Shown here one piece after another: positions 1-39,707 of a stretch of DNA of 39,707 nucleotides. The stretch is taken from the UHGV virus genome UHGV-0130034. The stretch is one strand, 5' to 3'. A program made the position numbers and the translations under genes. The notes under the pieces were generated by a model. The model searched no databases. It saw only the letters and a program-made list of their open reading frames with translations, and was not told the DNA's origin. Origin of the DNA: a virus. Positions within the stretch are counted from its first letter, which is position 1, and every line of letters begins with the position of its first letter.

Positions 1-6
1 AACCTA

Positions 7-69
7 ATGATGAATGACGGTAAGCAACAATCTACCTTTTTGTTTCACGATTACGCGCAACACCCCTGA
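7..69 (+). pseudogene. sbcB: Displaced native 5' end of sbcB (exonuclease I): codons 1-16 (MMNDGKQQSTFLFHDY), then reads into phage DNA and stops after 20 codons
   Basis: atgatgaatgacggtaagcaacaatctacctttttgtttcacgattac matches the recalled SbcB N-terminus; divergence from the attR-side continuation begins after position 55. Confidence 0.8.
32..55. repeat. attL core (direct repeat of attR core)
   Basis: ctacctttttgtttcacgattacg versus ctaccttcctctttcacgattacg at 39565-39588. Confidence 0.8.
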
Positions 70-109: not shown

Positions 110-131
110 TTTGGTACGCAATTTGGTACAC
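110..131. repeat. Putative integrase arm-type binding sites (two direct copies of TTTGGTACRC)
   Basis: tttggtacgc (110-119) and tttggtacac (122-131); the same decamer recurs three times upstream of int at 39370-39413. Confidence 0.55.
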
Positions 132-457
132 AACACAATTTTCACTTCAGTGGGTAGTCATCAAACTCACCATAACGAGCATCGTTGATGATGTATGTGA
201 TCACCACAAATATCACATCTGGACTAGTTCCGTCTTCATGCGCAGGTATCTGTTCATGCCTACCTGTCTGCAAACCAGTAATAAGCTATTACAGTGTGAT
301 AGTGATGCATCAACTACGATAAATGCAGAGAAATGATGCAGTGGTGGGCGGACTGGATTGATAAAAAGGTGGAGTGAACGACATTATGAACAACAGGAGA
401 ACACACAAAACCTCGCAAAATTACAAAGATTTGTGTGTTAGTACTTATCATTGCGAT

Positions 458-2404
458 TTAAAGAATAATTCTTTCAACCTTCCAAGTTGCAGATCTACTT
501 CCTGAAATTCCAACTCCATTTGAATCTTTGAGAAGAATTCTAAATGATGTTTCTGTTACCAAATCATACGTTGCATTTATTGCTGCGCCATCTCCTATCG
601 ATATTGAGATAAAATCAGGCACAACTCCAAGTCCGTGAGTTATTATTTGTCCATTTGAATAAACCCCAGTTCCTATTTTAGTCGTTGCATACCCGGCATT
701 GTTTGCAAGGACAACATTAACCGAATTTGCTCCTAATTTAGCAATCTTCCTATCAGATGAAATCTCTGTAGATTGTATTGCATTATTTGAAATAACTGCA
801 TCTTTTATAGCCCTGAAATCTCCAGGTGTTCCTGATACAGCATTAACAAGTATTGCATACTGCATACTTCTATCACTTCTTTTATTGCCGAAAGCATTAC
901 CGCAAATTGTTGTCCCGGTAAATCCAGATGCTCCCGTGTTATCAAGAAGAATTCCGCACCTATATGTATTTGATGTATCAGAAGGCAAACCTATACCTCT
1001 TATGGAATTATTGGATACTATATTATTATCTGGCTTGACATTTGCATTATTGCAGTAAATGCGAATTCCAACATCACAAAATGCATCTAATACATTATCA
1101 GATATAACATTACCCGCTCCCCACACATCAATACCCATAAACGAATCAGCACCATCTCCAAAAAATTTATTTTGAGTAACTATTGTTCCGCTACCCCTAA
1201 TCAATATAGCAGGCCTTGGAATGCTTGAAGTCTTTTTGCTATCATTGTAGCCATGATTATCGTTTATATGAGATTCCCCCCCCGCACTATCTATGCAGCA
1301 ATTACACGAATCTATTATATTTTTATTTATCCTTACATAGACAGAATCGTGTTTTATACCTGTAATAAAATTTGATATGGAATTTGATACAAAACTAGTT
1401 GCCTTACATGGCAATGAAACGCCATGTATAGCGTCCTTAGACGCTCCTATGGCAACAAAATGTATCCCTGTAACAATTGCTGGGTTCTCATTAGATGATG
1501 TGTCACCTATGGTAATAGCAAAAGAATTCTCATCTTCAGGACCATCAATTGTTAATATCGTTTGTGGCGTATATCCTTGAGATATTTGCGATCCATTTCC
1601 TGAACCAAACCCTCTCATACTTACAAAAGATGGGATTCTTAGTTTTTCTGTTACTCTACAGTTGCCCCCCCAAAAAAATTCCTCTTTAACATGGGCAGCG
1701 GCCAGCATGATTGGAATTGTATCATCTTTAACTCCATCAAGCGTCGCTCCATAATTTCTAAGGTCATTGGTTTCATACCCATTTAAATAACCAATACATC
1801 TCCATCCTGTTGAGTTATATCTGGCAAATTTATCATCTGGGGGAACAGTAAAAGGAGGAACTGTCATTTCTCCTCCAGTTATTTCATTTTCATATACCCA
1901 AAACAACCCATCATAATCTTTGATTGCGCATCGGTTGTCACGAATGATATTTTGCTTGTCATAGTTCCCACAATATGAAAAACCAGTTGCTAATTTCTGT
2001 AAATTTGTTCCTGATGCTGAGTTTATTAATGATGCGCCATTTTCGCTAGTTAATACATTATTTAGAGGGTCAGGATCATACTTCAGCACATTAGGAAAAT
2101 AGAACTGCTGCGCACCGTACGCATCATAAACAGCCATAGAATGGCCTTGCACAGTTACGAACTTGGCAATCTGTCCGTTATATACCGGATATCCGGCAGC
2201 GTTAATGATTATTGGTTGCGAAACAGGAACGTGAGAACCGTCTTCGTTCTCTACATAAACCTGAATCTGGTTTTCAGGATTTACAGGGTCAGTGTCAATT
2301 TTACCGATATAAATTTTGCCATTGGCAACGGCTTTAAAAGAACGAGCCATAGTGAAGAGTTGCGAAGGCATCGATACGATCACATTGGCTGTAATGTCTG
2401 TCAT
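458..2404 (-). CDS. gp9: Tailspike protein: P22 gp9-like N-terminal head-binding domain fused to a divergent receptor-binding domain
   Basis: N-terminus MTDITANV...[34 protein letters not shown]...[12 protein letters not shown] matches recalled P22 tailspike residues ~1-110; remainder diverges. Confidence 0.9.
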
Positions 2405-3475: not shown

Positions 3476-3637
3476 TTACGCGCCAATGCGCCCTTCCTTC
3501 TTAAAGCTTTCCATTACTCTCTGATAAATCTCAGAGTTAACAGACCGACCATTCTCTTCCGCCACCTTGCGTACCAAATCTAATACTTCTTTAGGCCACC
3601 GCAAATTGAACTGCGGCATCTTGCTCATTCCTTTCAT
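3476..3637 (-). CDS. arc: Arc repressor (53 aa)
   Basis: [53 protein letters not shown] is near-identical to recalled P22 Arc; the ORF-track N-terminal extension overlaps the Arc operator and is rejected. Confidence 0.95.
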
Positions 3638-29275: not shown

Positions 29276-29386
29276 ATGCCCTCCATAGTAACCATGAAAC
29301 AATAATACGATATGTACTTTTAGAATGCAAACAAAAAATACATCTTGTGCATGGATGGTTTTAGTACAGAGCGTAATAATAAGGGT
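29276..29386. promoter_or_regulatory. OR/PR/PRM region between cro and cI
   Basis: Divergent intergenic region with partial repeats (aatacgatatgtact, aatacatcttgtgca) related to the OL palindrome AGTACAAATTGTACT. Confidence 0.6.
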
Positions 29387-30046
29387 ATGAAAATGAAATG
29401 GTATGAACTGGCTAGATCCAGAATGAAAGAGCTCGGCATAACTCAAGAGAAGTTAGCCGAAGAGCTTGGTATGACGCAGGGTGGAATTGGTCACTGGTTG
29501 CGCGGATCTCGTCATCCATCTCTTGACGAGATTGGTGTGGTGTTTAAATACCTTGGTATTGATAACGTCTCATTCAACCACGACGGTACATTTTCACCTG
29601 TTGGCGAATACTCATCTGCCCCCGTTAAAAAACAATATGAGTACCCTGTTTTTTCTCATGTTCAGGCCGGGATGTTCTCGCCTGAGCTTAGAACCTTTAC
29701 CAAAGGTGATGCGGAGAGATGGGTCAGCACAACCAAAAAAGCCAGTGATTGTGCGTTCTGGCTTGAAGTTGAAGGTAATTCCATGACCGCGCCAACAGGA
29801 TCCAAGCCAAGCTTTCCTGACGGGATGTTAATTCTCGTTGACCCTGAGCAGGCTGTTGAGCCAGGTGATTTCTGCATAGCCAGACTTGGTGGTGACGAGT
29901 TTACCTTCAAGAAACTGATCAGGGATAGCGGTCAGGTGTTCCTACAGCCACTAAACCCGCAATATCCAATGATTCCATGCAATGATAGCTGTTCCGTAGT
30001 AGGGAAAGTTATCGCCAGCCAGTGGCCTGAAGAGACATTTAGTTAA
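29387..30046 (+). CDS. cI: CI repressor: non-lambda N-terminal DNA-binding domain fused to a lambda-type C-terminal S24/LexA-like domain
   Basis: C-terminal ~140 aa ([53 protein letters not shown]...[11 protein letters not shown]) near-identical to recalled lambda CI; N-terminal HTH differs. Confidence 0.9.
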
Positions 30047-30270: not shown

Positions 30271-30380
30271 AGCATTCAAAGCAGAAGGCTTTGAGTAGCG
30301 CGAAATGCAGCTGCAAGACAGCAACCGTGGAGATAAGCATCACGGCGCGTTACTCAAAGCTAACTGACAGGAGAATCCAG

Positions 30381-30707
30381 ATGGATGCACAAACACGCCG
30401 CCGCGAACGTCGCGCAGAGAAACAGGCTCAATGGAAAGCAGCAAATCCCCTGTTGGTTGGGGTAAGCGCAAAGCCAGTTAACCGCCCTATTCTCTCGCTG
30501 AATCGCAAACCGAAATCACGAGTAGAAAGCGCACTGAATCCGATAGACCTTACGGTACTGGCTGAATACCACGAACAGATTGAAAGCAACCTGCAGCGTA
30601 TTGAGCGCAAGAATCAGCGCACATGGTACAGCAAGCCACGCAGTGAAATGGGTGTGACTTGTGTTGGTCGCCAGAAAATGAAATTAGGCAGCAAACCACT
30701 TATTTGA
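30381..30707 (+). CDS. N: Antiterminator N (start at MDAQTRRRERR)
   Basis: MDAQTRRRERRAEKQAQWKAANPLLVGVSAKPVNRPILSLNRKPKSRVESALNPIDLTVLAEYH.QIESNLQRIERKNQRTWYSKP matches recalled lambda N. Confidence 0.95.
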   Translation: MDAQTRRRERRAEKQAQWKAANPLLVGVSAKPVNRPILSLNRKPKSRVESALNPIDLTVLAEYHEQIESNLQRIERKNQRTWYSKPRSEMGVTCVGRQKMKLGSKPLI

Positions 30708-37212: not shown

Positions 37213-37308
37213 AAGCGAAGCTTATACATATCTTTTACATCAGCAATCTATTGTTAATCTCCAATCAATGTTACGTTGTCATCTCACTCATGCTTTGGAG
37301 GTAGTGAT

Positions 37309-37488
37309 ATGTCTTGTCCAAAATGCGGTTCTGGAAATATTGCAAAAGAAAAAACAATGCGTGGATGGTCTGGAGATTATGTGTGCTGCGATTGCGGATA
37401 CAACGACTCTAAAGACGCATTTGGTGAGCGTGGTAAAAACGAGTTTGTTAAAATTAATAAAGAAAGCGAAGGCAACGAAAAAAGCTAA
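37309..37488 (+). CDS. Small zinc-ribbon protein (59 aa)
   Basis: GGAGG RBS; CPKCG...CCDCG motif. Confidence 0.55.
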   Translation: MSCPKCGSGNIAKEKTMRGWSGDYVCCDCGYNDSKDAFGERGKNEFVKINKESEGNEKS

Positions 37489-37552
37489 TTTATTTATTCA
37501 TATATGAAAACAATGTAACCAATATTCGAATTGAAGAACTGAAAGAACACCA

Positions 37553-37576
37553 AACCGCCTGATGGCGGTTTTTTAT
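37553..37576 (+). terminator. Rho-independent terminator-like hairpin with T-run
   Basis: aaccgcc-tgat-ggcggtt followed by tttttt. Confidence 0.6.
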
Positions 37577-37588
37577 TGGAGACAAGAA

Positions 37589-37933
37589 ATGTCAGATTTG
37601 GCTATGAAGATTTTGAAATGGCAATCGACTGGCGATGTCGGCATCAGTAGCGCAACTCTTGCCTCAATCGCATGTGGACTGAAAAAGAATATCTATGGTC
37701 ATCACTTCGGCGCTCCACATGACGCAGCCGATTTCCGACGATGCGTTGCACTTGTTGAGCAGATTCCAGAAATCAGAGATTCATTCGACAAGGTTGCAAA
37801 GCGCGTTCCGGCATTCAAAGGCATCCTCAACGAATGGGATTCTCTCGCTGCTCTGTTGAACTCTGAAATGAAGATACACGGAAACAAAGCACCAGAGACT
37901 TACAGAAGAATCAGCGAGCTACGCAAGGACTAA
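37589..37933 (+). CDS. Hypothetical protein (114 aa)
   Basis: GGAGA RBS; start at MSDLAMKILKW. Confidence 0.55.
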   Translation: MSDLAMKILKWQSTGDVGISSATLASIACGLKKNIYGHHFGAPHDAADFRRCVALVEQIPEIRDSFDKVAKRVPAFKGILNEWDSLAALLNSEMKIHGNKAPETYRRISELRKD

Positions 37934-37934
37934 C

Positions 37935-37995
37935 GCCTCACACTCGATGAGGCCTGTACATATCTGATAGAGCCGCTATATGGCGGTTTCTTTTT
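37935..37995 (+). terminator. Tandem hairpins with T-run (terminator region upstream of xis)
   Basis: gcctc-acactcgat-gaggc then ccgc-tatatg-gcgg followed by tttctttttg. Confidence 0.55.
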
Positions 37996-38010
37996 GCCTG
38001 GAGAATTAAG

Positions 38011-38202
38011 ATGACCGATACCAGCCTGATTCCTGAGAAAGAAGTGATGAACAAGCTCGGTGTTTCATCACGTCAGACAATCTGGAACTATACCAAACGG
38101 CACGGATTTCCGAAGCCAGTCAGAACCCACCCCAAATCATACCTTCGTGAAGCTGTTGAAGGGTGGATTCTTAACGGTGGCGTTAATCAGAAATGCTCCT
38201 GA
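38011..38202 (+). CDS. xis: Excisionase / AlpA-family DNA-binding protein
   Basis: 63 aa; HTH-like LGVSSRQTIWNYTKRHGFPKPV typical of AlpA/Xis; GGAGA RBS; adjacent to int. Confidence 0.7.
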   Translation: MTDTSLIPEKEVMNKLGVSSRQTIWNYTKRHGFPKPVRTHPKSYLREAVEGWILNGGVNQKCS

Positions 38203-39361
38203 TGTGCCAGAACAATTTATCAGCGTGAAGCTCATACGCTTTGCGCTGAGCCTCTATCCAGTCGTGTTTATTGTACACGGACATTATCCCGCCAAGTTCA
38301 TGACCGAGCATTCTCTCAGTAACATGAGGCTCGACATTCATCTCGGACAGACGTGTAACAAGCGTTCTTCTGAAATCATGTGTTCGCCAGTAACCTATAT
38401 CCATCCCTCCCCTTATTCTATTTACGAATCGGTTGGCTGCAGCGATGCTGATCGGTTTGTTTATGTCTTCTCCAGGGAAAAGAACATCATTGTACGTTGT
38501 CATGGCCTTATCGAGGAAAGGCTTAATTTGTTCGAAGATTGGACGGCGGATAACATTACCCATCTTGCTATGCTCTTTCGGTACGGTCCATACGTTTTCC
38601 AGCAGGTCAAATTCTGTCTTTTTTGCCAGCCTAAGCTCTGAGAGCCTCGCCCCCCACAGCATAAGCATCTGATGAAGTAGCTTATTTGACGTAGACGCAC
38701 GGCTTCTTTCAATAGCAAGCCAAATCTTAGCCAGTTCGTGATACGACAGTACCCGATCCCCTACCTCAGCGCGGGAGCCGAAGTCCCTTGGTTGGATGCT
38801 CATAATTGCGCAACTATCTATCAACTGACGCCGCATGCACCAACTAATTGCTGATCTTAGTTGACTTAGCACCTGCCTTGCTCGGCGTGGATTATCTTTT
38901 TCTTCTTCGGTAAGCAGGTCAACCCATTGCTTAACCGTGATAGAAGATGCCGGACGATTAGGGAAGGCGTCATGCATGCGCTTCATAACCGTTGATCGGT
39001 AAAGTGCCTGGGTCTTTTCTCTGAGAGTTGTAGAGACGTAGTTGTCGAACCAGTAGTCGAGACACTGGGCAACCGTCATGGAGTTCTCCACCTTCTCTTC
39101 AAAATAAGTGCGTGGATCCGTTCCTGAGAAATAGAGCTTTCGTAAGTCAGCAGTGATCTGTCTGGCATCCTTCAAAGACAGGGATGGGTATCGACCAAGC
39201 CCAAGTCGATTAGGCTTGCCATGCCAGCGATAGCGGTACTGGAACTGGATGACCCCCTTCGGTGAAATTCGTACGCTGAGGCCATCGGCATCAGCCACTT
39301 CTTGTGGGCCCGAATATGGTTTACCATAAATAGTACGCAGTTTTGTGTCGCTTATAGCCAT
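38183..39361 (-). CDS. int: Tyrosine integrase (P4-like family; start at MAISDTKLRT)
   Basis: N-terminal arm-binding-like domain, HDFRRT (H-x-x-R) motif and C-terminal Tyr (MSVYNKHDW); adjacent to attR. Confidence 0.9.
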   Translation of the reverse strand: MAISDTKLRTIYGKPYSGPQEVADADGLSVRISPKGVIQFQYRYRWHGKPNRLGLGRYPSLSLKDARQITADLRKLYFSGTDPRTYFEEKVENSMTVAQCLDYWFDNYVSTTLREKTQALYRSTVMKRMHDAFPNRPASSITVKQWVDLLTEEEKDNPRRARQVLSQLRSAISWCMRRQLIDSCAIMSIQPRDFGSRAEVGDRVLSYHELAKIWLAIERSRASTSNKLLHQMLMLWGARLSELRLAKKTEFDLLENVWTVPKEHSKMGNVIRRPIFEQIKPFLDKAMTTYNDVLFPGEDINKPISIAAANRFVNRIRGGMDIGYWRTHDFRRTLVTRLSEMNVEPHVTERMLGHELGGIMSVYNKHDWIEAQRKAYELHADKLFWHIRSISD

Positions 39362-39369
39362 AAATAATA

Positions 39370-39413
39370 TTTGGTACGCTAAGAAATAATGGTTTGGTAC
39401 ACATCTGGTACAC
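39370..39413. repeat. Putative integrase arm-type sites between the int start and attR core (three copies)
   Basis: tttggtacgc (39370-39379), tttggtacac (39393-39402), tctggtacac (39405-39413); same decamer as at 110-131. Confidence 0.55.
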
Positions 39414-39542
39414 AATATCACATGGACAACAGCGCACAGTAAACAACTATATTTGACGTTCGTAGACATACTCAGGTGAAAAAATGGTTGTTTTTCGAGT
39501 TATAACAGACAGTTAATTAACTACAGTGGACAATGCTAGACA

Positions 39543-39707
39543 ATGACAGACACAGATAAACAACCTACCTTCCTCTTTCACGATTACGAAACCTTTGGAA
39601 CGCACCCCGCGTTAGATCGCCCTGCACAGTTCGCAGCCATTCGCACTGATAACGAATTCAATGTCATCGGCGAACCCGAAGTCTTTTACTGCAAGCCCGC
39701 GGATGAC
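39543..39707 (+). CDS. sbcB: Exonuclease I (sbcB), 5' partial: hybrid gene whose first ~11 codons are phage-derived (MTDTDKQPTFLFHDYETFGTHPALDRP...); continues past the window end
   Basis: In-frame ATG at 39543 inside phage DNA reads through the att core into host sbcB (FHDYETFGTHPALDRPAQFAAIRTD...). Confidence 0.8.
   Translation, partial: MTDTDKQPTFLFHDYETFGTHPALDRPAQFAAIRTDNEFNVIGEPEVFYCKPADD
39565..39588. repeat. attR core
   Basis: ctaccttcctctttcacgattacg, 21/24 identical to 32-55. Confidence 0.8.

Follow-up and report, generated by a model that had tools for sequence, protein, structure and literature searches.

The convergent int and xis genes of a P22-like prophage in sbcB and their relation to the type 2851 and Φ24B recombination modules

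In the DNA of virus genome UHGV-0130034, a stretch of 39,707 nucleotides (nt) that we refer to in its entirety as the window, the integrase gene int starts beside an attachment site (att), is read away from it, and runs tail-to-tail into the excisionase gene xis. This locus raises the question of how Int is supplied when its gene is separated from the xis transcript, and in particular whether Int acts on its own promoter through the repeats that precede the gene, and whether transcription of the two genes toward one another has a part in setting their ratio. We consider it likely that the locus represents the site-specific recombination module of the type 2851 sbcB-integrating family of lambdoid phages, carried by a P22-like prophage, and that it operates in the following way. 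By extrapolation from the Shiga toxin (Stx) phage Φ24B, int would be transcribed from a weak promoter of its own in the att arm, independently of CI and thus also in the lysogen, and Xis would be made only when pL fires; excision would be switched by the supply of Xis, and not by a lambda-like co-induction of int and xis. Int bound at its three upstream sites would cover the promoter or the initially transcribed region and so probably dampen its own transcription, as suggested by the geometry and by the precedents of KplE1 and P4, and antiterminated pL transcripts would run antisense through int.

The recombination module and its attachment site

The module consists of two genes that share their 3' ends and of the attachment cores at the two prophage ends.

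38011-38202, plus strand: xis, encoding a 63-residue recombination directionality factor (RDF) of the winged-helix type, assigned by homology to Φ24B Xis and by PHROG 66
38183-39361, minus strand: int, encoding a 392-residue P4-like tyrosine integrase, assigned by Pfam, PHROG and homology to Φ24B
38183-38202: tail-to-tail overlap of the 3' ends of int and xis, 20 bp, with both stop codons inside it
43-55: attL core, the 13-mer TTTCACGATTACG, where the native 5' fragment of sbcB ends
39576-39588: attR core, an exact 13-bp copy of TTTCACGATTACG, with imperfect homology out to 39559

The integrase has an N-terminal arm-binding domain (Arm-DNA-bind_3, PF13356, residues 4-85; E 8.1e-18, with 64.8 bits where the cut-off is 27) and, C-terminal to it, a catalytic domain (Phage_integrase, PF00589; E 1.3e-16), and it matches the PHROG 1 integrases with an E value of 5e-74. 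Residues R239, K266, H328, R331, H354 and Y363 are invariant in a six-member alignment (A2), and from the motif context we take these to fill the R-K-H-x-x-R-H-Y catalytic roles. The closest characterised relative is the integrase of Φ24B (vB_EcoP_24B), with 56% identity (E 6e-170). An earlier note on this DNA described int as a minus-strand gene that, unlike lambda int, is transcribed away from att, with its start about 200 bp from the attR core, and the coordinates agree with this: from the int ATG it is 214 nt to the exact core and 197 nt to the extended homology.

The int open reading frame (ORF) as delimited mechanically spans 38183-39469 on the minus strand, and would give a product of 428 residues from an ATG at 39469. 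We rejected this longer version as the true gene, as conservation begins at the ATG at 39361, with the N-terminus MA[IL]SDTKLR that is conserved in the family, and the sequence upstream of 39361 is not conserved among relatives. The frame stays open for 36 codons beyond the true start (39362-39469, minus strand), up to the ATG at 39469, and gene callers may therefore over-extend int; an analogous long int ORF in Φ24B was disproved by Fogg et al. (PMC3064807).

The identification of Xis follows from its 47% identity to the experimentally validated Xis of Φ24B (E 4e-19) together with its match to PHROG 66, 'excisionase and transcriptional regulator' (E 1.9e-8). The gene had been described as an AlpA-type xis; its position on the plus strand and its identity as xis stand, but the AlpA label is weak, since the score against Pfam Phage_AlpA (PF05930) is 17.8 bits and the gathering cut-off is 21. 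Among seven members of the Xis family, two match Pfam AlpA at E <0.01 and three match HTH_17. Sequence searches of the PDB with Xis gave marginal matches only, the Xis profile matching the AlpA-family chain 8c3t with an E value of 0.012, and the RefSeq label in phages mEp234 and HK140 is 'AlpA family regulatory protein'. Xis would be expected to act like an RDF of the AlpA/TorI type, with a sequence that falls short of strict Pfam membership.

The 13-bp core, CGTAATCGTGAAA, and the insertion at the 5' end of sbcB are those of the type 2851 attachment system. An identical 13-mer is published as attP for phages 2851 and Sf101, and Sf101 is likewise described as inserting at the sbcB 5' end; in the window the core is embedded in a 30-bp repeat with 87% similarity between its two copies (26-55 and 39559-39588). 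The 1.8-kb stretch containing xis, int and att is 98-99% identical in nucleotide sequence to those of 2851, 1717, HK544, mEp234, HK140 and Sf101, and the same level of identity extends to many other Stx1 and Stx2 phages. Type 2851 phages share the annotations integrase, AlpA-family protein and attP 'type 2851', and they carry the module with essentially no difference. Outside the module the phages are mosaic, and Sf101, the best overall match, extends over only 50% of window positions 14800-39600. The int-xis-attR-sbcB junction is present in 528 of 5,426 complete E. coli genomes. The published accounts consulted on type 2851 phages name the 13-bp core and do not name the arm sites or the overlap, and a literature search on arm sites of phage 2851 yielded nothing specific. 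The module itself is already sequenced and annotated, and its layout is of a kind already described.

That kind is the Φ24B type, of which homologous Int and Xis, an int gene pointing away from att, and an xis gene opposed to it tail-to-tail are found here; a dedicated int promoter that is active in the lysogen and free of CI repression also belongs to the type, and is represented here by sequence candidates. The int gene of Φ24B is inverted and has its own promoter, pInt, mapped by 5'-RACE (rapid amplification of cDNA ends; Fogg et al. 2011, Nucleic Acids Res 39:2116, PMC3064807). In lysogens this int is expressed, with no repression by CI, and the small convergent ORF of Φ24B is an excisionase gene that is coupled to pL and required for excision (PMC3064807).

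Arm-type repeats and the candidate promoter of int

In the prophage the P arm of attP stays beside int as part of attR, and it carries three arm-type sites 9-52 nt upstream of the int ATG, with two more in the P' arm at the other prophage end.

39370-39379, plus strand: arm-type site 1, TTTGGTACGC, 9-18 nt upstream of the int ATG, in the int 5' leader
39393-39402, plus strand: arm-type site 2, TTTGGTACAC, 23 nt from site 1, core to core
39404-39413, plus strand: arm-type site 3, TCTGGTACAC, with one mismatch to TTTGGTACRC, 11 nt from site 2
110-119 and 122-131, plus strand: two P'-arm arm-type sites, TTTGGTACGC and TTTGGTACAC, 54-75 nt from the core
39414-39443, minus strand: best candidate for pInt, from a lenient scan, with a -35 element TTTACT (39443-39438), an 18-nt spacer and an extended -10 element TGtGATATT (39422-39414)

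Three TTTGGTACRC repeats had been reported between 39370 and 39413; all three are present, the third being the imperfect one, and the two reported in the attL arm between 110 and 131 are exact. Exact matches to TTTGGTACRC thus occur at 110-119, 122-131, 39370-39379 and 39393-39402, all on the plus strand. Five exact copies occur in the window against 0.12 expected, and none of 100 shuffled sequences contained at least five. The fifth exact copy, TTTGGTACGC at 3569-3578 on the minus strand, is in the structural-gene region, far from att, and is probably there by chance.

Relatives were collected by scanning one genome per species with the Int alignment, which gave 80 loci with 41-99% identity; one that matched only from Int residue 52 was left out, so that the census of repeats covers 79. 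Within 110 nt upstream of int, 58 of the 79 have a triple of repeats with a GTAC core, at intervals of 11 nt and then 20-25 nt, and in most cases the core nearest to int is 14-17 nt from the int start; the 11-nt spacing of sites 2 and 3 is kept in 57 of these 58. A further 12 of the 79, all Vibrionaceae loci, have a triple with a GTCC core, spaced by 12 nt and then 20-22 nt. Such triples were found in only two of 1,661 control windows drawn from the same loci. The intact attP sites of mEp234, HK140, Klebsiella P12620-1, Hafnia yong2 and Pantoea AH07 have two more copies about 235-250 nt away, in the other arm, such that the arrangement of three plus two sites is maintained in the intact attP of divergent phages. 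The motif itself varies with the integrase (TTTGGTACRC here, yTGTACTyA in Klebsiella, TGTACnCA in the Φ24B group) and the positions are fixed. The fixed positions, the drift of the motif with the integrase and the rarity in control windows lead us to conclude from these comparisons that the repeats are true arm-type Int sites, whose motif would have co-evolved with Int.

Two observations concern variants of these repeats. In loci L068-L083 (Vibrionaceae and one contig labelled Psychrobacter), whose Int is 45-48% identical to that in the window, a GTCC triple (tgtGTCCaaa) is present with near-identical spacing; most of these loci have no match to the Xis profile, and their RDF may be a different protein. 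Upstream of site 3, at 39421-39427, the window reads GTCCATG, which corresponds to GTACATG in several relatives and to GTTCAC in the Φ24B group (aligned loci L022, L033-L037, L065 and L086). This block may be a degenerate fourth arm-type site, instead of or besides a promoter element.

The start of transcription from the candidate pInt is predicted near 39407, within site 3, and most of the 25 closest relatives have kept the block caTGnNATATTg, which is directly upstream of site 3. The Φ24B subgroup has a different consensus upstream of int, TTGCCA-N18-CAtAAT, whose spacer and -10 element contain sites 3 and 2. The start site mapped by 5'-RACE in Φ24B is 46 bp downstream from the start codon that had been discredited (PMC3064807), which we infer to be about 29 nt upstream of the TTG start and just past the CAtAAT element. 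All of the candidate int promoters overlap or immediately abut arm sites, and whichever of the two promoter placements is taken, Int occupying the three sites would be predicted to cover either the promoter or the first 50 nt of the transcript.

An overlap of arm sites and promoter is a feature of KplE1-type control. Here the arm sites are well supported, and the candidate TGn-extended -10 element only abuts site 3. The integrase genes intS, intC, intF and intL have this geometry, and all four of those tested are under negative autoregulation, by 4- to 28-fold (PMC2951348); Panis et al. forecast such autoregulation to be widespread (PMC2951348). None of the four belongs to the 2851/Φ24B family of integrases.

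Several points weigh against a self-repressed pInt at this position. In 37400-39707 a strict sigma-70 scan gave no promoter, the matches being lenient ones only, and the position of pInt in the subgroup to which the window belongs is a guess. The position of the Φ24B-type -10 element aligns to CCAAAC in the window, and a promoter of the Φ24B type is therefore probably unused here. The KplE1 precedent is an analogy, IntS being only 21% identical to the Int described here. Finally, int mRNA of Φ24B is present in single, double and triple lysogens in a ratio of 1 : 2.6 : 7.5 (PMC3064807), and this more-than-linear rise argues against tight negative autoregulation in the closest relative that has been studied.

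The same rise of int mRNA with prophage copy number would fit a purely architectural role of the five repeats, in which they serve the assembly of the intasome, their proximity to the int start is a by-product of compaction and Int has no meaningful effect on its own transcription. Conservation extends over attP as a whole, to the geometry of the P' sites about 235-250 nt away as well as to the int-proximal sites, and recombination alone could therefore account for it. Such an explanation sits less easily with the finding that every plausible promoter overlaps or abuts the sites, with the position of sites 3 and 2 in the Φ24B subgroup, between the -35 and -10 elements of a promoter-like consensus that is well conserved, and with the repression seen for each of the four integrases of this geometry. 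We regard a purely architectural role as possible but less likely than not. Autoregulation by Int, argued from analogy, is plausible, and its chances appear to us roughly even.

The overlapping ends of int and xis

The 20-bp overlap of int and xis was found exactly as the earlier note had it, and its position relative to the reading frames is informative. The stop codon of int, TAA, is complementary to the TTA in the xis codons GTT-AAT, and these codons specify Val-Asn in the GG[VI]N motif that is conserved in Xis. The census of overlaps comprised the 55 relatives with a detectable Xis homologue, and in all 55 Xis is encoded on the opposite strand downstream of int. The genes overlap in 50 of these, by 20 nt (22 loci), 17 nt (13), 23 nt (8), 14 nt (3), 11 nt (1), 4 nt (2) or 54 nt (1); in the remaining five the genes stand apart, by 2-25 nt in three loci and by 0.8-1.1 kb in two. 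Overlaps of 11, 14, 17, 20 and 23 nt share one relative reading frame, and their differences in length come only from the poorly conserved C-terminal tail of Xis beyond GG[VI]N. The overlap is retained down to about 45% Int identity, and the opposed arrangement of the genes spans Enterobacterales, Orbales and some Vibrionaceae. Since the int stop sits in the GG[VI]N codons of Xis, the overlap is an old, frame-locked trait of the family that needs no regulatory cause. A tight overlap is also not obligatory, as some relatives have gaps or an intervening 0.8-1 kb.

One such relative is Klebsiella phage Kp4875-4 (L012, 2503-3345), in which a 280-residue ORF without assigned function is encoded on the strand of int and separates it from xis; this ORF could represent a moron or a defence gene. 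Loci L019 and L058 likewise have about 0.8-1.1 kb between int and xis.

The signals that bear on transcription and translation of xis are as follows.

37970-37997, plus strand: terminator-like hairpin (37970-37989) and T-run, 21 nt upstream of xis, also annotated as a rho-independent terminator in HK140
38000-38003, plus strand: Shine-Dalgarno sequence GGAG of xis, 7 nt upstream of the xis ATG, read from the sequence

No Shine-Dalgarno sequence comparable to this GGAG was found for int upstream of 39361. All major ORFs from the N-like gene to xis are on the plus strand, and for this reason we take xis to be the last gene of the pL operon; this bears out the earlier description of xis as terminal in that operon, from where it converges on int. 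The hairpin at 37970-37997 would put xis behind N antitermination. We rejected it as a feature of the family, a comparable hairpin preceding xis in only four of the 55 relatives, and it is, as far as this comparison indicates, specific to the E. coli 2851-type module. A second terminator-like hairpin of the distal pL operon, at 37552-37571, looks bidirectional.

No strong terminator was found between xis and int on either strand, and folding of the int 3' trailer (37940-38200, minus strand) gave no convincing terminator (z = -1.76). With no strong terminator after xis, antiterminated pL transcripts would have to cross int in the antisense direction. Transcripts that continue past xis (38203-39707, plus strand) would traverse int antisense, then attR and then sbcB in the sense direction, and there might be a transient induction of sbcB when the prophage is induced.

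It had been suggested that convergent transcription over the 20-bp overlap controls the ratio of Int to Xis. In this scheme pL transcripts would collide with transcription from pInt or pair with int mRNA, lowering Int at induction, and read-through from pInt would be antisense to xis and dampen leaky Xis synthesis in the lysogen. The lack of a strong intrinsic terminator after xis on the plus strand or after int on the minus strand is consistent with this, as is the retention of the tail-to-tail overlap in 50 of 55 relatives; N-modified polymerase would moreover ignore weak terminators, as in lambda. However, the location of the int stop inside conserved Xis codons explains the overlap without regulation, the relatives with 2-25 nt gaps or 0.8-1 kb between the genes, including Kp4875-4 with its 280-residue ORF, depart from it, and a literature search gave no report of such interference for any int/xis pair of the Φ24B/2851 family. 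Excision itself requires Int, so that silencing of int at induction would have no obvious benefit. We therefore consider it unlikely that collision or antisense pairing sets the Int:Xis ratio, and the broader proposal, that the overlap is a selected device for reciprocal antisense or collision control that replaces lambda pI and sib regulation across the Φ24B/2851 integrase family, would seem equally doubtful.

The frame-locked overlaps also fit neutral inheritance of a compact cassette, in which both the overlap and the inverted orientation are carried along with no regulatory role of their own, and control is exerted entirely through the supply of Xis from pL and through protein stability. 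Overlap lengths of 11-23 nt in a single frame, varying only by the Xis tail, and the tolerated exceptions (the gaps and Kp4875-4) both agree with it, and the Φ24B study accounts for its phenotypes without invoking the overlap (PMC3064807). Sequence comparison by itself does not separate neutrality from weak selection, however, and the arrangement persists over Enterobacterales, Orbales and some Vibrionaceae; we see the case for neutrality as evenly poised.

Insertion in sbcB and comparison with known systems

The stretch is a P22-like lambdoid prophage of about 39.5 kb seated in the 5' end of sbcB, and the landmarks that place the module within it are the following, together with a cro-like gene on the minus strand.

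458-2404, minus strand: tailspike gene
29345-30046, plus strand: cI
30291-30707, plus strand: N-like antiterminator gene
39543-39707, plus strand: phage-supplied ATG and first nine codons (MTDTDKQPT), followed by the att-homology codons FLFHDY, in an in-frame fusion to host sbcB

The native start of sbcB corresponds to window positions 1-55, a sequence found in 5,415 of 5,426 complete E. coli genomes, and insertion reduces it to a stub of 20 codons, MMNDGKQQSTFLFHDYAQHP* (window 1-69). At the other end the phage-borne codons MTDTDKQPTFLFHDY are in frame with the remainder of sbcB, with the HDYETFG stretch retained, and the PGAP annotation of one lysogen shows an intact sbcB of 474 residues beginning at the phage-supplied ATG. 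Because the phage replaces the 5' end of sbcB, it must also bring a promoter and translation signals for that gene. The top plus-strand sigma-70-like match in the gap between the divergent int and sbcB is at 39423-39453 (TGGACA, a 19-nt spacer and TATATT; 10 of 12 positions), which points toward sbcB, back-to-back with the candidate pInt. It may be a phage-borne sbcB promoter, and if so, Int or Xis bound to the arm could affect sbcB as well.

Short direct repeats occur near the core in the int-proximal arm, GACAATG at 39529 and 39539 (10 bp apart) and ACAGACA at 39505 and 39546 (region 39505-39552). These could be candidate sites for Xis, and they overlap the new sbcB start codon. No IHF consensus, either WATCAANNNNTTR or looser forms, was found in the reconstructed attP, and an Rfam scan of 37300-39707 gave a single match at chance level (E 0.59). 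There is no tRNA gene in the window, and this is therefore not a tRNA-targeting element.

If the mechanism that we favor is right, the picture drawn for KplE1 and Φ24B extends to a module carried by about 10% of complete E. coli genomes, with int constitutive and possibly self-limited and Xis alone switching excision. The carriers include Stx1-, Stx2a- and Stx2c-converting phages, so that the mechanism bears on the stability of Stx prophages, on multiple lysogeny and on rates of excision. The three arm sites, with their fixed spacing and a core that co-varies with the integrase, and the frame-locked overlap of int and xis are evident targets for mutagenesis. The comparative result leaves the understanding of this class of module unchanged.

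The closest comparison is with Φ24B. In both phages int is inverted relative to lambda and adjoins att, xis converges on it, and three repeats with a GTAC core stand ahead of the int start. The Φ24B record gives int as 236..1405 and xis as 1389..1571 on the complement, which makes a tail-to-tail overlap of 17 bp as opposed to the 20 bp here. Φ24B differs in its att site and in the flanks of its arm sites, having an argW-like sequence beside int, a repeat motif TGTACAnnA in place of TTTGGTACRC, a TTG start for int, and a promoter consensus TTGCTA-N18-CAGAAT that is not preserved in the window. For Φ24B, pInt, its CI-independence and the function of Xis were shown experimentally, whereas the 2851-type module is known by sequence and homology.

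KplE1 (CPS-53), with its IntS integrase and TorI RDF, resembles the module in the direction of int, which points away from att (Panis et al. 2010, PLoS Genet, PMC2951348). It has a dedicated int promoter in the att arm that is overlapped by arm-type sites, the promoter being a candidate in the module described here, its int and RDF genes are transcriptionally uncoupled, and its excision is governed by the supply of RDF (PMC2951348). It differs in its arm motif, described as containing TAAA, and in that repression by Int and by the RDF was demonstrated in KplE1 (PMC2951348); for the present module such repression is a possibility by analogy. The low identity of the integrases noted above led us to reject IntS as a close homologue. 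On the K-12 map, torI is presumably at the opposite end of the KplE1 prophage and so does not converge on intS. The integrase of satellite phage P4 belongs to the same superfamily and has an Arm-DNA-bind_3 N-terminus, and its vis gene is not known to converge on int. Work attributed to Piazzolla et al. (J Gen Virol, 2006) and discussed in PMC2951348 reportedly found P4 Pint to lie beside attP and to be repressed by Int and by the RDF, Vis.

The novelty that the earlier note implied does not survive these comparisons: an inverted, self-promoted int with a convergent, pL-coupled xis is published for Φ24B (PMC3064807), and the overlap of promoter and arm sites with autoregulation is published for KplE1 (PMC2951348). 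The regulatory logic was thus anticipated by the work on these two systems, and both mechanistic proposals, autoregulation by Int and interference over the overlap, are hypotheses of modest novelty.

With lambda the module shares five arm-type sites divided three and two around the core, and an xis gene expressed from an N-antiterminated pL. In lambda, int shares a transcript with xis, points toward att and is under the control of pI and of sib retroregulation. Here int is on the strand opposite xis and pL, directed away from att, and control of the pI or sib type is therefore impossible. HK225, in which xis is annotated as phi80-like, also has int directed away from attP and a convergent xis, with an overlap of 4 bp, although its Int is only 31% identical to that of the module. 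To call this arrangement unlike that of lambda is correct, but the order of attP, int and a convergent xis is a known alternative layout.

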